The notes below the pieces were generated by a model. It made no database searches and was not told where the DNA came from. It was given only the letters and a program-made list of their open reading frames with translations. Source: Gemmatimonadota bacterium (lineage in GTDB: Bacteria > Gemmatimonadota > Gemmatimonadetes > Palauibacterales > Palauibacteraceae). From it: DNA of 64,000 nucleotides. Shown here one piece after another: positions 43,630 to 52,866 of the stretch. The stretch spans positions 1,664,846-1,728,845 of the forward strand of contig CP070670.1 in the NCBI GenBank assembly GCA_020351855.1, written 5' to 3'. Within the stretch, counting starts at the first letter, position 1, and every line of letters starts with the position of its first letter. The position numbers and the translations under genes are program-made.

Positions 43630-46600
43630 TCAGGCAACCTGACCGCTGGGCAGATCGCCGAACTCCACGCCCACGATGGAGGAGACGCCGGGCTCCTGCA
43701 TGGTCACGCCGTAGATCCAGTCGGCCGCCTCGATGGTCCGGGGGTTGTGGGTGATCACGACGAATTGCGTGTCGTTCTTGAACTCCTCCAGCATGCGAAC
43801 GAACCGACCGATGTTCGCCTCGTCCAGCGGCGCATCGACCTCGTCCATCACACAGAACGGGCTGGGCTTCGCCAGGTAGATCGCGAAGAGCAGCGACAGC
43901 GCCGTCAACGCTCTCTCCCCTCCGGAGAGCAGGTGGATCCGCTGCGTGCGCTTGCCTCCGGGACTGGCCGAGATCTCGATCGGCGAATCGAGCGGGTCCT
44001 CGCTGTCCAGCCACAGATCACACTCACCGCCCTCGAACAGCGTGCCGAAGGTGCGTTGGAAGTTCTCGCGAATCTGGTCGAACGTGGCGAGGAACGACTC
44101 GGCAGCCGCCCGGTTAATCCGTCGGATCGACGTCTGGAGATCATCACGGGCTTTCGTCAGGTCCTCCCTCTGCGCCTCCAGGAAGGCGAGCCGCTCGCTC
44201 TCTTCCTCATACTCCCGCGCAGCCAGGGGATTGACCGGGCCCAGCTTCCGAATGCGGGCCCGCAGCTCCTCCAAGTCGCGCGCCCACTCGTCAAGCGTGC
44301 CCTCGGACGGCCTCTCGACCCCCTCGGCCAGGCTCTCAAAGTCCTTCGCCCACTCCGCCTCGAGCCGCTCCCGAATGCTGGATCGGCGCGCCCTCTGCTC
44401 CGCGAGATCGAGTTCCAGCGCGTGGCGCGTCTCGGCATGCTCCCGCTCGGCCCTTCGCGCTTCCCTGACCCGTGCCTCCTCCTCGTCGACCTCCGCACGC
44501 AGCTGCCCCAGACCCTGGTCGGCCCGCACGAGAAGCGGTTCGTTCCCGGAGCGCTCCACGAGGAGCGCTGCCATGCCCTCTTCACGCTCCGCCGCGCTCC
44601 GAAGAAGCGCCGCGGCAAGCCCATTCCTCTCCTCACGCTCTGCTTCCAGCCGCTTCCGTAGCGCACCGACCTCATCCCGCCGCACCTCCACCTGCCGGAG
44701 ACGCTCCAGCTTGGCCGCGGCTTCGGATTCCAGCCTCGCGAGGTCGAGCTGCAGCTCGTGCAGCTCCGTGCGGCCGGCCTCCCAGTCCGTGGTCGCCCGC
44801 CGGGCTCGCTCTTGCGCCTCTCCAGCGGCCGCCTCTGCTGCAGCCTCCTCTTCCCGCAGGCCGCTGAGCGCGCCCTCGCGGTCCCCCTGATCCCCGTCGT
44901 AGCCATCGACGGCCCCGGCCAGCTCGCCGATCCGGCCCGTCACCGCCCTCTCCTCGGAAAGCAGGCTGTCGACGCGGGCAGCCGCCGCTTCCCTCCGAAC
45001 GTCAGCTTCCTGGAGGGCTGCCCGGGCAATGTCCAGTTCGCCCGACGCGGACTCGACCTCACCCTCCCGCTCGGCCAGCCCGTCGTTCGCGGACGCGAGC
45101 TCGGACCGAAGCTGGGCCAGCTCCTGCTCTGCCTCGCCGACCTGACCCTCGAGCGTGTCGATCTCCGCACGCAGCTCGAGAGAGCCGCCGGCCCCGGGCC
45201 TGCCGACCCGCACCGCACCGAGGCGGTCCTGCCCACTGCCGTCGCGCAGCACCCATGCCCGGTCGGCGGGAGCGAAGCTCTCGGCAGCCCGCACCGTACC
45301 GAGAAGCGCAGCCGCCCAGTCGCCGGCCGGATCCCGAACCGCGATCTCGTTCAGCACGCTGCCCTCGTGCACCGCCTCCGTAGCGGGCTGCGGGCTGAGG
45401 GGCAGCAGGAGGAGGCCGCCCTCGTCCTCGCTCTGCTCGAGCCAGCGCTGCACGGCGGCGACAACCTTCCAATCCTTCACGAGGAGGGCGTGCAGATAGG
45501 GCCCGAGGTGAGCCTCGACGGCCGTCGACAGGTGGGCAGGGACATCCAGGTAATCAACGAGCGGACCGAGCACCCCCTTGACCCCCTCGGACCCCCGGCC
45601 CGCACCCAACAAACGCCGCACCGTCGCCGGCTGGCCGCCGCCGGACGCCAGCAACGCGCGGAGGCTCGAGAGACGAGCCTTTATCCCGGAAAGACTGCCC
45701 TCGGCCTCGGCGACGCGATCCCTGACGCCGCGCCAACGAGCCCGCACTTCGGCTAACTCGCCCCGCACCCGGGTTAGCTCCGCCTCGAGCCCGGCGTACC
45801 GCTCCGCCGCCCGCTGCGCCTCGGCCCTGGCGTCTTCCAGCTCCTCCTCGGCCGCGCCTCTGCTCTCCTCGATTCCAAGCAGCAGCTCCCGGCGCCGCTC
45901 GAGCTCCCTGATACGCTCTTCGTGCCTCTGCTCCTCGACAGCCCGGTCCGCAGACAGCTCTGCGATCTGCCGGCTCGCCTCGCGGTGGCGGTTTAGCGCC
46001 TCCTCCACAGCCGTGACAGCCCGCTTCTTGTCGCCCTCGAGCCGCTCCACCTCCGCCACGAGGCCGGCCTCCAGCTCGCCCGTCTCCTCGAGGCGGCTCC
46101 GGGAGGCCTCGCTCTCCGCCTTCAGCCGCTCGAGCTCCGAGCTCAGCGATGCGCTCCGTCCAGCCACCTCGGCGAGCTCCTCCTCGATGGCCTCGAGGCG
46201 GGCGTCGTTCGTGGACGCCCGTTCGGCCTCGACCAGGCCCTCCGACTCCATTCGGTTCAGGCGCTCGCGAACCCGAGCCAGCTGCTCCGCGAGCGCGCTC
46301 CTGTTCCTGCCGTCCTCGGTGAGCCTGAGACGCAGGGTTTCCAGCTCTGCCTCTCGCGCGTGCAGACCGGCCTCCTCGCCTGGGGCCGCTTTGCGGAGGC
46401 CCTCGAGCTCGCCCGTCGCGGCGCCGATCCGGGATTCGATGTCGGCCAGCCGCTCGGCGGCCACTGCGATCTCGAGCTGCAGCAAACGCTCCCTGTACCG
46501 GACATACCGATCCGCTCGCCCGCGCTGGCGGGCGAGCGAGCGCACCTTCGCCTGCACCTCTCCGATCAGGTCATCCAGTCGCTGCAGATCGGCCGTCGCC

Positions 46601-47148
46601 GCCTCGAGCCGGCGGAGCGCCGTCCGGCGACGGTCCTTGTAGCGGCCAATCTCAGCGGCTTCCTCGAAGAGGGCCCTGCGCTCCTCGGCTCGATCGCTGA
46701 GAATCGCATCGATCATCCGCGCTTCAATGATCGAGTAGGCGTTGGCCCCCAGTCCCGTGTCCCGACAGAGATCCAGGATGTCCCGCAGCCGGCAGGAGGC
46801 GCCGTTCAAGCTGTAGTCACTCTCCCCGCCGCGGTACACGGTCCGGCCGATCGCCACCTCCGAGTACGGCACGGCCAGCTTGCCGTCCTCGTTTGACAGG
46901 ATCAGGGAGACCTCCGCCCGATGGATGGCCTTCCGTTGCTCCGTACCGCCGAAGATCGCCTCGTCCATGCGGCTTCCACGGATGACGGTCGGACGCTGCT
47001 CGCCGAGCACCCAGCGAATCGCGTCGGAGATGTTCGACTTCCCGCATCCGTTGGGTCCGACGACCGCCGTGATGCCCTCGTGAAAATCGAGGGCGGTGCG
47101 GTCGGCAAAGGACTTGAAGCCGTGGAGGGTGAGGGACTTGATCTTCAA
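43630..47148 (-). CDS. smc: chromosome segregation protein SMC
   Basis: N-terminal Walker A VVGPNGCGKSNISDAIRWVLGEQ, long coiled coils, a hinge, and C-terminal LSGGERALTALSLLFAI with Walker B FCVMDEVDAPLD. Confidence 0.95.
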   Translation of the reverse strand: MKIKSLTLHGFKSFADRTALDFHEGITAVVGPNGCGKSNISDAIRWVLGEQRPTVIRGSRMDEAIFGGTEQRKAIHRAEVSLILSNEDGKLAVPYSEVAIGRTVYRGGESDYSLNGASCRLRDILDLCRDTGLGANAYSIIEARMIDAILSDRAEERRALFEEAAEIGRYKDRRRTALRRLEAATADLQRLDDLIGEVQAKVRSLARQRGRADRYVRYRERLLQLEIAVAAERLADIESRIGAATGELEGLRKAAPGEEAGLHAREAELETLRLRLTEDGRNRSALAEQLARVRERLNRMESEGLVEAERASTNDARLEAIEEELAEVAGRSASLSSELERLKAESEASRSRLEETGELEAGLVAEVERLEGDKKRAVTAVEEALNRHREASRQIAELSADRAVEEQRHEERIRELERRRELLLGIEESRGAAEEELEDARAEAQRAAERYAGLEAELTRVRGELAEVRARWRGVRDRVAEAEGSLSGIKARLSSLRALLASGGGQPATVRRLLGAGRGSEGVKGVLGPLVDYLDVPAHLSTAVEAHLGPYLHALLVKDWKVVAAVQRWLEQSEDEGGLLLLPLSPQPATEAVHEGSVLNEIAVRDPAGDWAAALLGTVRAAESFAPADRAWVLRDGSGQDRLGAVRVGRPGAGGSLELRAEIDTLEGQVGEAEQELAQLRSELASANDGLAEREGEVESASGELDIARAALQEADVRREAAAARVDSLLSEERAVTGRIGELAGAVDGYDGDQGDREGALSGLREEEAAAEAAAGEAQERARRATTDWEAGRTELHELQLDLARLESEAAAKLERLRQVEVRRDEVGALRKRLEAEREERNGLAAALLRSAAEREEGMAALLVERSGNEPLLVRADQGLGQLRAEVDEEEARVREARRAEREHAETRHALELDLAEQRARRSSIRERLEAEWAKDFESLAEGVERPSEGTLDEWARDLEELRARIRKLGPVNPLAAREYEEESERLAFLEAQREDLTKARDDLQTSIRRINRAAAESFLATFDQIRENFQRTFGTLFEGGECDLWLDSEDPLDSPIEISASPGGKRTQRIHLLSGGERALTALSLLFAIYLAKPSPFCVMDEVDAPLDEANIGRFVRMLEEFKNDTQFVVITHNPRTIEAADWIYGVTMQEPGVSSIVGVEFGDLPSGQVA

Positions 47149-48593
47149 CGTGGCTCTCCTCGTCTCGTCACAAGTTCAGCGTCCACGCCAGCAGCTCGCA
47201 GAAGGTCGCGCATCGCCGAGGCGGCAGCGGCTTTCTCGTATGCGCCGGCGTAAACCTGATATACCGTATCACCCTCCGCCACCAGCGGGATCGTGTAGGT
47301 CGGGATTCGCCTGCCCGTCAAAGCCTCGCTGGCCGCCCGCGCCGCCGTCCGGTCCGCGTGCACGGAGACCAGATACGCCAGGGCGGCCGGACGCACGTCC
47401 CAGTCGCTGGCCGCCTCTTTTAGTCCGCGCCGCGTGAGCTCGCCCATGAGCTCGAACGCCCGATCGCGCGTCGGCAGCGCACCCGCGTAGATCCGTTGGT
47501 AGACCGTCCCGCGGACCGGCGTCGGGGCAACGAACACGACCAGGGATCCATCCGCCAGCCGCCTTGCTTGCGCCATGGCATCGGAGAGGGAGGCGTAGCT
47601 CGCCAAGAGAACGGAGTACCCCAGCGCCGGGCCCCCCGTGCGGTCCGCCACGGCCGTCGCCGCCCCCACTTGACCCGGCCCCGGCGCAGCGCGCGGAGCC
47701 GGCCGACCGGCCTCGGTCCGCCCCCCGGTGGGTAGGGCCTCTGCCGCCCTTCCCTCGGTCCCGCTGCGCTCCGGGTCCGTGGGAAGCTCCGTCGCCACTC
47801 CCGGCATCGGCTCGGCCTCCAGGGACGCCCGCGCAGCCACGTACCGGGCGAGAAGCCACCACCCTCCCAGCAGGCCGACGAGCGCGGCCCCGGCAAGCCC
47901 GATGCGGGAGAGCGGCAGGCGCTGCTTGATGCGATGGCGACGCCAGCGCGAAAGCGCCGGGGAATCCGCAGCCGGGAGGTCCGACGCCGGGGAATCCGCA
48001 GCCGGGAGATCCGACGCCGGGGAATCCGCAGCCGGGAGATCCGACGCCACGGACGGCCGCGTGGCGGGCTCGCCCATCTCGGCCTCCCGGACCGCCCCCG
48101 TCCCGTCGGCACGCACCTCGCGGTCCGGGGACGGTGGAGAGGCCCCGAGCTCCAGCACCGCGTCGAACCACTCGGCCGGCAAGCCCGCAAGGTCGCGCGG
48201 GACGACGAGCAGCAGCGTGCCGCTGGCGGCGCGCACCCGCTCGATGAGGGCCCGGATACCGGGCGACGGCGGGATCGCGCCGGATCCCCCTGCCGGAAGG
48301 TACAGAAACGGCCTGCCGCTCGGACGCCGCACCGCCTCGGTGAGCCCCACCCGACCTGCAAGCACCTCGCAGAGCCCTGGAGCGCCCACGGCGCCCAGGC
48401 TCTCATCGAGCCGACGTCCCGCGGAGCCCACACCCGTCACCAAGGTGCGGCCGCGACCTGCGGCCAGCTCGGTCGCTAGAGCGCTCACGACGTCTGAAAG
48501 CCCGGCGCCATCAACGGCCTGCACGGCCACAACTCGCGCCTCGGCGGCCAGCGCCAGAAGCACGCCCGATCGGGCCGAATGCTCGGTACTCAC
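47145..48593 (-). CDS. membrane protein with degenerate MinD/ParA-like (pseudo-ATPase) N-terminal domain, internal decapeptide repeat, TM segment and two C-terminal SPOR domains
   Basis: The N-terminus aligns in pattern to the MinD/ParA P-loop fold, but Walker A KGGxGKT is replaced by DGAGLSD and Walker A' D-x-D by GVG. The LYLPAGG region is retained. Three copies of SDLPAADSPA follow, then a TM helix (IGLAGAALVGLLGGWWLLA) and two SPOR-like domains (YSVLLASYASLSDAMAQARRL...; YLVSVHADRTAARAA...YQVYAGAY). The stop overlaps the smc start (ATGA). Confidence 0.7.
   Translation of the reverse strand: MSTEHSARSGVLLALAAEARVVAVQAVDGAGLSDVVSALATELAAGRGRTLVTGVGSAGRRLDESLGAVGAPGLCEVLAGRVGLTEAVRRPSGRPFLYLPAGGSGAIPPSPGIRALIERVRAASGTLLLVVPRDLAGLPAEWFDAVLELGASPPSPDREVRADGTGAVREAEMGEPATRPSVASDLPAADSPASDLPAADSPASDLPAADSPALSRWRRHRIKQRLPLSRIGLAGAALVGLLGGWWLLARYVAARASLEAEPMPGVATELPTDPERSGTEGRAAEALPTGGRTEAGRPAPRAAPGPGQVGAATAVADRTGGPALGYSVLLASYASLSDAMAQARRLADGSLVVFVAPTPVRGTVYQRIYAGALPTRDRAFELMGELTRRGLKEAASDWDVRPAALAYLVSVHADRTAARAASEALTGRRIPTYTIPLVAEGDTVYQVYAGAYEKAAAASAMRDLLRAAGVDAELVTRRGEPR
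47948..48037. repeat. perfect 3 x 30-bp tandem repeat inside the SPOR-protein CDS
   Basis: The unit ccggggaatccgcagccgggagRtccgacg occurs three times head to tail and encodes SDLPAADSPA x3 on the minus strand. Confidence 0.85.
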
Positions 48594-48617: not shown

Positions 48618-50237
48618 TTAGAATTCTCCCTCCATCCCCGCCGTCAGCTCGATCACCCAGGCGTCCAGACCACGCTCTCGTCGCAGCTGCCGAGCCGCGG
48701 CGTCGGCCCTCTCCCGGGCCGGGTACGGCCCGACGAGCGCCCGATACCACAGCTCGCCGGCGTCGTCCCGGCGTCGCTGGACCGCCGTCGGATATCCGCT
48801 ACGCGCCAGGGTGCCTACGAGCTCGATCACGCCCGACGCAGTGCGAGCGGCCAGAACGACCGCGTAGTACCCGGCGGCGGGCGCGGCCAGCATGGCGGCG
48901 AGCGAGTCCGTGCCGCCACGGCCATCCTCCGCCGGAGTCCTCGCGCTCGCAGCATCCTCGCCCGCCCCACCGGCATCCGGGGGCGCTGCCCGCCCCGGAC
49001 CCTCATCGGTCGCGTCCGCGGTCTCGTAATCCGGTGCGGCTTCCGCCGTGTCAGCCGGCCGCCGTCCTGCGCCGTCGGCTACCCGGACAGCGTCCGGCCT
49101 CCAGCGCACGGGAAGCCACCACGCATCGACGGGTCCATCGACGGACTCCAGCTGGACGGCGGTGCGGGCACCCCGGTCCACCCGCGCGAGGAACAGCGAG
49201 TCCTCCCGCACCCCCAGGATCTCTCCCGTGGGCAGTGCGAGCGGGAGGTCGGCCCGCCATTCGAAGGGCAGGCGAACGGCGGGTGCGCCGCTCAGAGACA
49301 CGAGGAAGACGCCCTCCACGGTCGCCGCCAGCAGCGCCTGGCCGAACACGCCCGGTCGCAGCTCGGAGATCTCCGCGCCGAGCCGAGCCAGCTCCCGCCG
49401 ATTGCCGCTGATCCGGTTCACCGCGTCGATCCGGCCGCCCGAGCGGGCGGCGTAGATCTCGTGGGAGGACCCGGAGAGGGCCAGCGCCGTTACCCCCCGC
49501 CGAAACTCCCAGCGATTCTCGACCTCGAGATCCGGAACGCGGACGACCACGAGCTCTTCGGCAGCGCCCGAGGGGAACACGACACTGCGCGAGAACGCGG
49601 TGAGGAGTCCGGGAGGGCGCACATCCAGTGACGCCTGCGCCACGACGTCCGAACCCTCTCCGAGCACGAGCACGACAGCCTCCCCGTCGCGCCGGCCAAG
49701 CGCCAGGGCCGCGCCATCGGGCAGCGGCCCGGCCCACTCCACCGGCACGGGCGACACATGCGTTCGTGATCCGGCGGCATCCGTTATCGTGATCTCCGTC
49801 TGCTCCCAGAAGGCTACCGCGCCGCGGAACGAGCTCCATCCAGCCTCCGGTGCGACCTCGATCCCGGCGGCCCGCGGCTGCCCCAGGTCCCAGCGATAGG
49901 CGGCGCCCCCGGGGGCCCGGAGCACGAGGGTCTGATCGCCGCTCGCCCGCGCAACTTCCACCGCCGGCAGCGGGCTCTCCCGGCGCCAGAGGCGCAGCGA
50001 CGGATCGACGGCCGCCCGCAACTCGGGCCGGCCTCCCGCCCACCCGAGCACCATCAGGCCAGCCTCAGCCATCCAGTCGCCCACGACGAGGCGCTCCTCA
50101 AGCTCGACGGAATCGCCAGTGCCGCTCCCGGAAGGCCGATCGCACGAGAGAAGCCACAGGGAAGAGGCGCTTGCCAGCAGGATCGGGATCGCCGGCCGGA
50201 GCCGCCCTCGCGACATGGCCGACCCGCGCGGCCTCAC
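48618..50237 (-). CDS. putative lipoprotein with C-terminal SPOR domain
   Basis: Signal peptide and lipobox (ILLASASSLWLLSC), a large beta-rich periplasmic region of unknown fold, an acidic linker, and a C-terminal SPOR domain (YYAVVLAARTASGVIELVGTLARSGYPTAVQRRRDDAGELWYRALVGPYPARERADAAARQLR). It overlaps the rsfS stop by 4 nt if the first ATG is used. Confidence 0.7.
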   Translation of the reverse strand: MRPRGSAMSRGRLRPAIPILLASASSLWLLSCDRPSGSGTGDSVELEERLVVGDWMAEAGLMVLGWAGGRPELRAAVDPSLRLWRRESPLPAVEVARASGDQTLVLRAPGGAAYRWDLGQPRAAGIEVAPEAGWSSFRGAVAFWEQTEITITDAAGSRTHVSPVPVEWAGPLPDGAALALGRRDGEAVVLVLGEGSDVVAQASLDVRPPGLLTAFSRSVVFPSGAAEELVVVRVPDLEVENRWEFRRGVTALALSGSSHEIYAARSGGRIDAVNRISGNRRELARLGAEISELRPGVFGQALLAATVEGVFLVSLSGAPAVRLPFEWRADLPLALPTGEILGVREDSLFLARVDRGARTAVQLESVDGPVDAWWLPVRWRPDAVRVADGAGRRPADTAEAAPDYETADATDEGPGRAAPPDAGGAGEDAASARTPAEDGRGGTDSLAAMLAAPAAGYYAVVLAARTASGVIELVGTLARSGYPTAVQRRRDDAGELWYRALVGPYPARERADAAARQLRRERGLDAWVIELTAGMEGEF

Positions 50238-50647
50238 AGATCCTCCAGCGAAGCGCGGGGCGCATCACCCCACAGTCTCTCGAGCTGGTAGAAGTCCCTC
50301 ACGTCGGGAAGAAAGACGTGCAGCACCACGTTGATGAAGTCCATGAGGATCCACCGCCCGGCCGAGCGGCCCTCGATGCCGGCCGCCCGGATGCCTCCCT
50401 CGCGGGCCCGCTCCAGCGCGTTGTCCGCGATCGCCCGGGCGTGAACGTCCGAGTCGCCCGAAACGATGAGGAAGTAATCGGTCGCATCGGACAGTTGCCG
50501 CAGGTCGAGCACGACTGCATTCCGCGCATTGCGCTGCAGAACGGCCCTTGTCAGGTACGACAGCTCGGCGGGAACCTCGCCCGGGCTCCCGACGAGCGCC
50601 GCGAGACGCCGCGCCAGGGGATCCGGGGCCGGGCCGTGATCTAGCAA
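50234..50647 (-). CDS. rsfS: ribosome silencing factor RsfS (Iojap)
   Basis: RsfS/Iojap core DLRQLSDATDYFLIVSGDSDVHARAIADNALE...WILMDFINVVLHVFLPDVRDFYQLERLW. Confidence 0.85.
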   Translation of the reverse strand: MLDHGPAPDPLARRLAALVGSPGEVPAELSYLTRAVLQRNARNAVVLDLRQLSDATDYFLIVSGDSDVHARAIADNALERAREGGIRAAGIEGRSAGRWILMDFINVVLHVFLPDVRDFYQLERLWGDAPRASLEDL

Positions 50648-50666: not shown

Positions 50667-51116
50667 TCACTCCTCGGCGACCACCCAAACCGTCAGCTCA
50701 GGCCGCACGTCGGCATGGAGACGGACGGGCACGCGGAAGACGCCGAGCTCCTTGATCGGCTCGTCCAGCATGATGTCGCGACGATCGATCACGACGCCAT
50801 CTCGGGCCAGCTGCTCCGCAATGTCCACGCTCGTCACCGAGCCGAACAGTCGGCCCTCCTCGCCTGCCCTGACCTTGAAGGACACGGACCGCCCCTCGAG
50901 CTCCGCCGCCAGGCCTTCCGCCCGCTCCTTCTCGCGCTCGACGCTCACGCGCGCCTGGCGCCTCTCGTTTTCCAGGCGGCGCACGTTTCCCTCGGAGGCC
51001 GCGTACGCCAGTCCCTGTGGAATCAGGTAGTTGCGGGCGTAGCCGGCCTTCACATCGACGATCTCGCCAGCGCGGCCAAGATCCGTCACATCCTGCCTGA
51101 GTATCACTCGAGTCAT
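50667..51116 (-). CDS. rplI: 50S ribosomal protein L9
   Basis: L9 N-terminal domain (RVILRQDVTDLGRAGEIVDVKAGYARNYLIPQGLA) and C-terminal domain. Confidence 0.9.
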   Translation of the reverse strand: MTRVILRQDVTDLGRAGEIVDVKAGYARNYLIPQGLAYAASEGNVRRLENERRQARVSVEREKERAEGLAAELEGRSVSFKVRAGEEGRLFGSVTSVDIAEQLARDGVVIDRRDIMLDEPIKELGVFRVPVRLHADVRPELTVWVVAEE

Positions 51117-52326: not shown

Positions 52327-52866
52327 CTATTCTTCGCCGACTTCCGGCTCGCTCTCGCTGCCGACCGGGGGGGGCTGCCTCACGCGAGAGCCACGGCTGC
52401 GCTCGCCATCCTCGTCTTCGTCTTCATCCTCGTCCTCGTCCTCGTCCTCATCTTCGTCCTCGTCCTCGTCCTCATCTTCGTCCTCGTCTTCGTCCTCGTC
52501 TTCATCGTCCACGGATCGGCGTCCCCGCCGCTCCGCCCGCTCATCGCCCTCCCTCCGCATGGAGGGCGGGAAAGGCAGCTCGCCTTCCGAGAGGACGATC
52601 AGGTAGCGCAGGAGGCTCTCATCAAGCTTGAGGAGTCGCTCGAAATCCGCGAGCGAGGCGGGCTTCGCCTCGAACTGCGCAACGACGTAGTACCCGTTGC
52701 GCTCCTTGTCGATCGGATAGGCGAGCTGGCGCTTGCCCCAGTGCTCGACGGCCGAGATCTGCCCGGACTCATCGGTGAGGCGGCCGTGAAAGGTCTGCAG
52801 CTTGGACTCGATCTCCTCGGCGGTGAGCGAGGAGCGGAAGATGTATACGATCTCGTACTTGTTCAT
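52327..52866 (-). CDS. rpsF: 30S ribosomal protein S6 with long acidic (Asp/Glu)n C-terminal tail
   Basis: S6 fold ([10 protein letters not shown]...[16 protein letters not shown]). The tail is (DE)n of about 40 residues, encoded by the hexanucleotide repeat at 52408-52512. Confidence 0.9.
52408..52512. repeat. (gaggac/gaagac)n hexanucleotide microsatellite encoding the S6 poly-Asp/Glu tail
   Basis: About 17 near-identical 6-nt units on the coding strand. This is not a CRISPR: there are no spacers and it is in-frame coding. Confidence 0.8.

Follow-up and report, generated by a model that had tools for sequence, protein, structure and literature searches.

The 64,000-nucleotide (nt) window analyzed here, the whole stretch of Gemmatimonadota DNA taken from contig CP070670.1, contains a gene immediately upstream of smc whose product is predicted to combine a catalytically dead tyrosine kinase-like domain in the cytoplasm with two SPOR domains in the periplasm. 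We call this gene X (47145..48593, minus strand). We propose that X is a septal dead-kinase scaffold coupled to SMC, a reading that, taken as a whole package, we place at a little under an even chance. The gene has a GTG start and a TGA stop and encodes a bitopic membrane protein of 482 amino acids, and its extent is supported by its open reading frame (ORF), its homologs and a full-length AlphaFold2 model built on a 32-sequence alignment. In order, the protein comprises a folded N-terminal domain (the N-domain), a disordered linker, the motif RWRRHR, a transmembrane (TM) helix, a periplasmic linker and the two SPOR domains.

A word search found 37 homologs of X, and further word-indexed protein searches with alignments A2 and A3 found no additional ones. 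When 1.84 billion representatives were searched exhaustively in HMMER with a profile built from 18 N-domains of the family, at least 146 clusters at 50% identity were recovered with E<=1e-10, and 2120 clusters at E<=1e-3. All family members that carry an organism name are metagenome-assembled genomes (MAGs) of Gemmatimonadota, and the family appears from these searches to be specific to that phylum. Of 182 members examined, SPOR accompanies the N-domain in 115, and another 52 pair the N-domain with a TM helix and lack SPOR, some of these being fragments. Public records name the proteins 'SPOR domain-containing protein', 'hypothetical protein' or 'DedD'. The N-domain belongs to no Pfam or NCBIfam family, and Pfam scans of it and of 18 homologs, one sequence at a time, gave no meaningful match. 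This is a gap in annotation, and the N-domain deserves a family of its own.

Fold and catalytic motifs of the N-domain

The N-domain (residues 1-150; 48144..48593, minus strand) is predicted to be cytoplasmic and to adopt a shortened form of the bacterial tyrosine kinase (BY-kinase)/MinD fold of the SIMIBI class, with five beta-strands and an N-terminal helix. When residues 1-175 were compared with the PDB using phmmer, the only plausible matches were BY-kinases (BceF 2.3e-3, Wzc 0.098, CapB 1.4), and the weak NCBIfam matches of the N-domain were likewise confined to BY-kinase models (eps_transp_fam 1.1e-3, EpsG 9.9e-3). The family profile reached BceF at 1.6e-4, Escherichia coli MinD at 3.6e-4, Wzc at 4.4e-4, FleN at 0.017 and Soj at 0.38. 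Its strong matches include P0117 (5.8e-22), P0157 (2.1e-12) and P0159 (3.2e-12), which NCBIfam names as polysaccharide tyrosine autokinase family proteins, and a distant SPOR-bearing member of the family, P0171, matches the Wzc model directly at 3e-6. Matches to PurE in the profile search were set aside, as they were confined to the generic Rossmann-like N-terminal half. The curated BY-kinase models score X far below their cut-offs (TIGR01005, 17.3 versus 411.7 bits; EpsG, 15.1 versus 313.8 bits).

Structure prediction gave the same picture. An AlphaFold model of residues 1-151 alone has a mean predicted local distance difference test (pLDDT) score of 86 and a predicted template modeling (pTM) score of 0.83, and the top 50 Foldseek matches to it are BY-kinases or MinD throughout, with E values of about 4e-6 and TM scores for the query (TMq) of 0.6-0.75. 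In the full-length model, the N-domain is confident over residues ~15-150 (pLDDT >90). By both profile and fold similarity, then, we judge the N-domain to be truly homologous to SIMIBI proteins, not merely similar in composition, and to have the SIMIBI P-loop NTPase fold of the BY-kinase type, with similarity to the MinD/ParA fold as well; its nearest branch is the BY-kinases rather than MinD/ParA. The best-conserved block, residues 62-103 (LDESLG..PGLCEVLAGRVGLTEAV..FLYLPAGG; 48285..48410, minus strand), aligns to BceF, Wzc and MinD, and its pattern LD..LG...PGL.EVL.G...L.EV....F.YLP.G is common to the X family, BY-kinases and MinD. The conserved residues within it are D63, G73, L74, G80, L84, F96, Y98, L99, P100 and G102.

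The domain is shortened at its C-terminus, with ~150 residues in place of the 200-260 of solved kinase domains. About 147 of the 203-259 residues in those structures have a counterpart in X, and the fold lacks its C-terminal third: the domain ends ~20 residues past the Walker B strand, and the profile alignments also end soon past it (Wzc 542-629 of 720; MinD 2-123 of 260).

Each catalytic motif of the kinase fold has been replaced. In place of Walker A (GxxxxGK[ST]), the alignments to Wzc and BceF show a degenerate P-loop, VDGAGLSD (residues 27-34; 48492..48515, minus strand). phmmer aligns L31 with Wzc residue 540, the Walker A lysine (Met in the crystallized K540M mutant), and S32 with T541, and the loop falls one residue short of that of Wzc. 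The signature GK[ST] occurs at the P-loop position in none of 183 aligned sequences (182 homologs and the window's protein), and the deviant Walker A of MinD/ParA, KGGxGK[ST], is absent from X. The Walker A' motif (hhhhDxDxR) is replaced by RTLVTGVG (residues 49-56; 48426..48449, minus strand), where D-x-D has become G53-V-G55 and the region as a whole reads LVTGVGSAG. The strand aligned to Walker B (hhhhDxxP) is TLLLVVPRD (residues 126-134; 48192..48218, minus strand), and no acidic residue stands at the aligned Walker B position in LLLVVPRD. Between residue 99 and the TM helix the sequence has no tyrosine, and the Tyr-rich cluster at the C-terminus of BY-kinases is absent. Read from its sequence, the N-domain is predicted to be catalytically dead.

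In the most distant family members, DxD-like Walker A' strings persist (VDADLR, ADGDLR and VDLDLE), which suggests graded descent from a kinase-like ancestor. Among the profile matches, P0157 is a 534-residue protein from a Logan contig that has a Wzz-type N-terminal half and a BY-kinase domain scoring above the TIGR01007 cut-off (1.2e-32, 113 bits). Its Walker A' (DADLR) and Walker B (DAPP) are intact, and its Walker A reads GTGPDEGAT, without lysine. It may represent a stage between the active BY-kinases and the X family, in which degeneration is complete.

The domain has lost these motifs and yet is maintained by selection. In pairwise comparisons over 11 orthologs, where synonymous divergence (dS) is near saturation and the values are thus rough, the ratio of nonsynonymous to synonymous substitution rates (dN/dS) is 0.30 in the N-domain, 0.21 and 0.31 in the two SPOR domains and 0.50-0.63 in the linkers, the highest value, 0.63, being that of the periplasmic linker (residues 255-320). 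The N-domain is therefore under purifying selection and X is not a recent pseudogene.

An initial annotation of this DNA, made from the letters alone, had described a 482-residue product of the gene immediately upstream of smc whose first ~150 residues follow the SIMIBI pattern. The gene was confirmed along with its homologs, and every string quoted for it is in the translation (VDGAGLSD at residues 27-34, GRGRTLVTGVGSAGRRLDESLG and FLYLPAGG). The SIMIBI-like region was borne out by the profile, Foldseek and AlphaFold results, and the prospect that the resemblance was compositional fell away. The label 'MinD/ParA-like' holds for the fold and fails for closest kinship. The replacement of the Walker A lysine by leucine in DGAGLSD and the reading of D-x-D as GVG were both correct, and the absence of an intact Walker A lysine from all 183 sequences contradicts the concern that only this copy had recently decayed.

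Membrane topology, SPOR domains and the junction with smc

The N-domain is followed by a disordered, tyrosine-free cytoplasmic linker (residues 151-213; 47955..48143, minus strand; pLDDT <50), a basic juxtamembrane motif on the cytoplasmic side, RWRRHR (residues 216-221; 47931..47948, minus strand), in which W217 and H220 are invariant in alignment A1, and a single TM helix, IGLAGAALVGLLGGWWLLARYVAA (residues 231-254; 47832..47903, minus strand), identified from the full-length model, a hydropathy scan and the invariant W245/W246. In that model, disorder spans residues 158-225, a helix spans 228-259 and disorder returns at 263-305. The segment before the helix, SRWRRHRIKQRLPLSR (residues 214-230), carries seven positive charges (six Arg and one Lys), the segment after it is net negative, and the N-termini of orthologous X proteins are highly charged and are not signal peptides. 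On this charge pattern and these N-termini, X is predicted to have an N-in topology with periplasmic SPOR domains. The hydrophobic N-terminus (GVLLALAAEA, residues 10-19) was considered as a signal peptide and rejected; it is modeled as the N-terminal helix of the fold, and the orthologous N-termini are charged.

Linker length is hypervariable among relatives, from ~0 to ~800 residues. Within the cytoplasmic linker of X, a 30-bp tandem repeat of 3.1 copies with 98% matches (Tandem Repeats Finder; 47955..48048, minus strand) encodes ASDLPAADSP three times and looks like a recent expansion.

Beyond the membrane, a disordered periplasmic linker (residues 255-320; 47634..47831, minus strand; pLDDT <50 for 263-305) leads to SPOR domain 1 (residues 321-402; 47388..47633, minus strand) and SPOR domain 2 (residues 403-482; 47148..47387, minus strand), which ends in the conserved RRGEPR. 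Against Pfam, the whole protein matches SPOR alone (PF05036; E 5.7e-10, 39.8 bits). When the halves are scanned separately, residues 318-400 score 22.9 bits and residues 403-482 score 28.4 bits, both above the gathering cut-off of 21, and X therefore has two SPOR domains. AlphaFold2 models two beta-alpha-beta-beta-alpha-beta modules at 326-402 and 405-476; the first domain has pLDDT >90 and a beta-alpha-beta-beta-alpha(-beta) topology. The single TM helix and the SPOR pair of the initial annotation are thus both retained.

The downstream gene, smc (43630..47148, minus strand), encodes 1172 residues with SMC_N (Pfam, 3.6e-67) and SMC_hinge. At the coupling junction (47145..47160, minus strand), the TTG start of smc (47146..47148) overlaps the TGA stop of X (47145..47147), and an AGGAG lies at 47156..47160, inside the last codons of X, with a 7-nt spacer before the smc start. 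The stop/start overlap had been noted before as ATGA; the overlap is there and the string is TTGA. A 4-nt NTGA overlap joins X and smc in 19 of the 21 loci containing both genes, including the most divergent members, L024 and L026, and the SPOR-bearing form of X lies directly upstream of smc in every locus whose contig reaches smc. At the C-terminus of X, the invariant RRGE(P)R has CGAGGAGAG as its coding sequence, and in the window and in L001-L021 the same letters form the Shine-Dalgarno-like AGGAG. The motif may be under a dual constraint, on coding and on translation.

The junction lies in a longer conserved gene order. Upstream of X is a gene for a predicted lipoprotein of 539 residues with a C-terminal SPOR domain (48618..50237, minus strand; lipobox LLSC; Pfam SPOR 1.3e-9), whose stop is 24 nt from the X start. 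Before it are rsfS (50234..50647, minus strand; Pfam RsfS 3e-27), which opens the rsfS - SPOR - X - smc run, and rplI (50667..51116), upstream of rsfS. The order DUF2232 - rplI - (insert) - rsfS - SPOR lipoprotein - X - smc is found in 21 of 21 orthologous loci where the contig reaches the gene, so that the rsfS-SPOR-SPOR-smc run sought in related genomes is indeed conserved, and the order around X is kept down to 50% SMC identity. A search with the full-length alignment yielded 17 loci, every one from a MAG.

The SPOR lipoprotein gene adjoins X in 21 orthologous loci and is variable elsewhere. It is absent from L024, where X directly follows rsfS, and in L026 it is replaced by a gene for a 1084-residue PD40/Tricorn beta-propeller protein. 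In both loci, the ORF after X begins M[RK]L[QR]TLRLHGFKSF, which identifies SMC. Three SPOR-less paralogs, P0153, P0072 and P0139, lie beside unrelated genes and do not adjoin smc. Because the overlap is kept in L024 and L026 and the SPOR-less paralogs lie elsewhere, the X-smc junction is the conserved core of this neighborhood and is specific to the SPOR-bearing subfamily.

Variants that lack SPOR or have a long acidic linker were considered as orthologs and ruled out, as they are paralogs in unrelated contexts. One such architecture (P0072, P0105, P0106; L023) runs from the N-domain through an acidic linker of ~800 residues and a TM helix to a periplasmic domain that contains Cys (GCPLLMSAREEA...), and a gene next to it ends in the same Cys domain. 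In P0092, a J-domain (DnaJ) is fused N-terminally to the dead N-domain and TM helix.

Several observations concern the neighboring genes. The SPOR lipoprotein (MSRGRLRPAIPILLASASSLWLLSC lipobox) has ~400 residues without a Pfam match. With its longest-ORF start, its gene overlaps rsfS by 4 nt (50234..50237); starting instead at an internal ATG, 21 nt downstream, yields a signal peptide more typical of lipoproteins, and the overlap is therefore uncertain. Further upstream, rpsF (52327..52866, minus strand) encodes ribosomal protein S6 with a long C-terminal (DE)n acidic tail, specified by a GAC/GAG microsatellite-like run, and in L026 the S6 and S18 Pfam families are both on one 212-residue product.

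A proposed septal scaffold and its alternatives

SPOR domains bind amidase-denuded glycan strands at the septum. As a septal dead-kinase scaffold, X would be a bitopic inner-membrane protein of the FtsN/DamX/DedD functional class, and its SPOR pair, acting by the known SPOR mechanism, would bind these glycans and concentrate X at the constricting septum. On the cytoplasmic side, by analogy with the BY pseudokinases EcpK and HfsB, the N-domain would most likely be a phosphorylation-independent scaffold that oligomerizes, docks a partner or does both. From the overlap and the AGGAG, X and SMC are probably made together. The chromosome machinery is proposed as the partner because of this co-translation signal with SMC and the precedent of CpsD, and the likeliest candidates would be SMC-ScpAB or ParB, in which case nucleoid organization or clearance would be tied to septum closure. 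A more specific idea, suggested by gene order and the overlap, is that X tethers the SMC condensin (or ParB) to the constricting septum, physically or through regulation; we regard it as doubtful. Such a tether would read septal peptidoglycan outside the cell membrane and position or clear the chromosome inside.

Several points weigh against this proposal. A start/stop overlap signifies co-expression and not physical interaction. The region rpsF...rplI-rsfS-SPOR-X-smc, continuing through genes for a metallo-beta-lactamase (MBL) and DAHP synthase to yraN, dnaX and ybaB, is syntenic across the phylum, and the X-smc adjacency could therefore be frozen housekeeping synteny and partly generic. Conservation in the N-domain falls mostly on structural residues (Gly, Pro and Leu), with no obvious partner-binding surface identified among them, and the missing C-terminal third of the kinase fold makes the formation of Wzc/CapB-like rings uncertain.

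The strongest alternative is that X is an ordinary divisome SPOR protein, an analogue of FtsN, DamX or DedD, whose dead N-domain self-assembles or binds components of the divisome (FtsA or FtsZ, for example) and whose position beside smc is inherited synteny. We find this credible and yet lean against it. Topology and C-terminal SPOR domains are as in those three proteins, and the JGI has named one ortholog 'cell division septation protein DedD'. The synteny covers a 15-kb neighborhood as a whole, beyond the X-smc pair, and the N-domain and TM module recur in paralogs with other periplasmic parts and unrelated neighbors, so the domain is not specific to SMC. However, the 4-nt overlap between X and smc persists where the upstream SPOR gene has been lost or replaced, linkage to smc is confined to the SPOR-bearing subfamily, and no NCBIfam model of DedD, DamX or FtsN matches X.

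It is improbable that the N-domain works as a switch that still binds nucleotide through a non-canonical site. In favor of this, the fold prediction has high confidence around the P-loop position, GAGKPKAS stands there in one homolog (P0025), and distant members keep their DxD-like strings. Yet the loop is a residue too short for a P-loop and has lost its Lys and Thr, the Leu-Ser found in the window's closest homologs gives way to other residues in more distant members, and the window's clade lacks the Walker A' and B acidic residues as well as the C-terminal third of the domain.

An exopolysaccharide role is quite improbable. The N-domain would then scaffold a polysaccharide co-polymerase (PCP), as in EcpK and HfsB, and X would organize exopolysaccharide or capsule export at the septum. 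Its nearest relatives by structure and sequence are all polysaccharide BY-kinases, known BY pseudokinases work in this way (PMC12004946) and CpsC/CpsD act at the septum (PMC4574921), but the loci examined contain no Wzx/Wzy, PCP or OPX genes, and in place of a Wzz/PCP periplasmic domain X carries a TM helix and SPOR domains of its own. Finally, the N-terminal region could be a functionless, decaying remnant, with only the SPOR part mattering; all catalytic motifs are indeed lost, but a dN/dS equal to that of the SPOR domains and below that of the linkers, high AlphaFold2 confidence and conservation across at least 146 clusters make this highly improbable, and family conservation and dN/dS already contradict it.

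Returning to the septal scaffold, its interest lies partly in its hosts. Gemmatimonadota are abundant and poorly studied; a 2024 study describes FtsZ-based fission in the phylum, genomes that seem to lack Min, MipZ, PomZ, MapZ and SsgAB, and a lack of genetic tools (PMC11271474). X offers a lead on division there. Its family, with those 146 or more clusters, is a candidate for coupling chromosome organization to cytokinesis, and if the tether is real it would be part of the phylum's system for coordinating nucleoid and division or for selecting the division site.

Comparison with known systems

X resembles FtsN, DamX and DedD in its N-in single pass, its disordered linker in the periplasm and the SPOR domain at its C-terminus. 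It differs in having two SPOR domains and coupling to smc, and where the cytoplasmic part of those proteins is a short peptide or unstructured, that of X is a folded 150-residue BY-kinase-like domain. Neither the NCBIfam DedD model nor those of DamX and FtsN match X, and the neighboring SPOR gene scores 14.6 bits against a DedD cut-off of 150. The SPOR lipoprotein encoded beside X may be compared with RlpA.

The active BY-kinases Wzc, Etk, VpsO, CapB and BceF are related in fold, and every catalytic feature that defines them is absent from X. The order of parts is also reversed: the Wzc kinase is C-terminal, after TM2, and X has its kinase-like domain first and no Wzz-type periplasmic domain. 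The kinship with MinD/ParA is weaker, with fewer aligned residues (~126) than for BY-kinases (~147); MinD is anchored by a C-terminal amphipathic helix and X by a TM helix, and X has no MinC or MinE partners.

BY pseudokinases are a described class. EcpK of Myxococcus and HfsB of Caulobacter are presumed to be scaffolds that work without phosphorylation, docking peptides of their partners and perhaps forming rings (PMC12004946). Like X, they have the BY-kinase fold and have lost the Tyr-rich tail and all three Walker motifs (A, A' and B). However, they are soluble or fused to PCP-2, are encoded in Wzx/Wzy polysaccharide clusters and dock the PCP-2 C-terminal tail, whereas X is shorter (~150 residues), carries its own TM helix and SPOR domains after the N-domain and lies between the SPOR lipoprotein gene that follows rsfS and smc; neither the window's neighborhood nor the orthologous loci examined contain Wzx/Wzy, PCP or OPX genes. 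We found no description in the literature of a SPOR and BY-kinase-like fusion, or of its coupling to smc. The initial annotation knew of no described family with this architecture, which stands for the fusion and not for the dead BY-kinase-like class (PMC12004946), and the novelty of X is limited to the fusion and its context, since BY pseudokinases and bitopic SPOR proteins are both known.

For the proposed role of X, the closest functional precedent, by analogy, is CpsC/CpsD-ParB(-RocS). In Streptococcus pneumoniae, the septal BY-kinase CpsD binds ParB, coupling the segregation of chromosomes to constriction (PMC4574921). It differs from X in being an active autokinase that signals through its phosphorylation state, in being tethered through CpsC and in being encoded in a capsule operon, not beside smc. 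BY pseudokinases have so far been known only as scaffolds of polysaccharide co-polymerases, and the X family, if our reading is right, would extend them to a protein that binds septal peptidoglycan.

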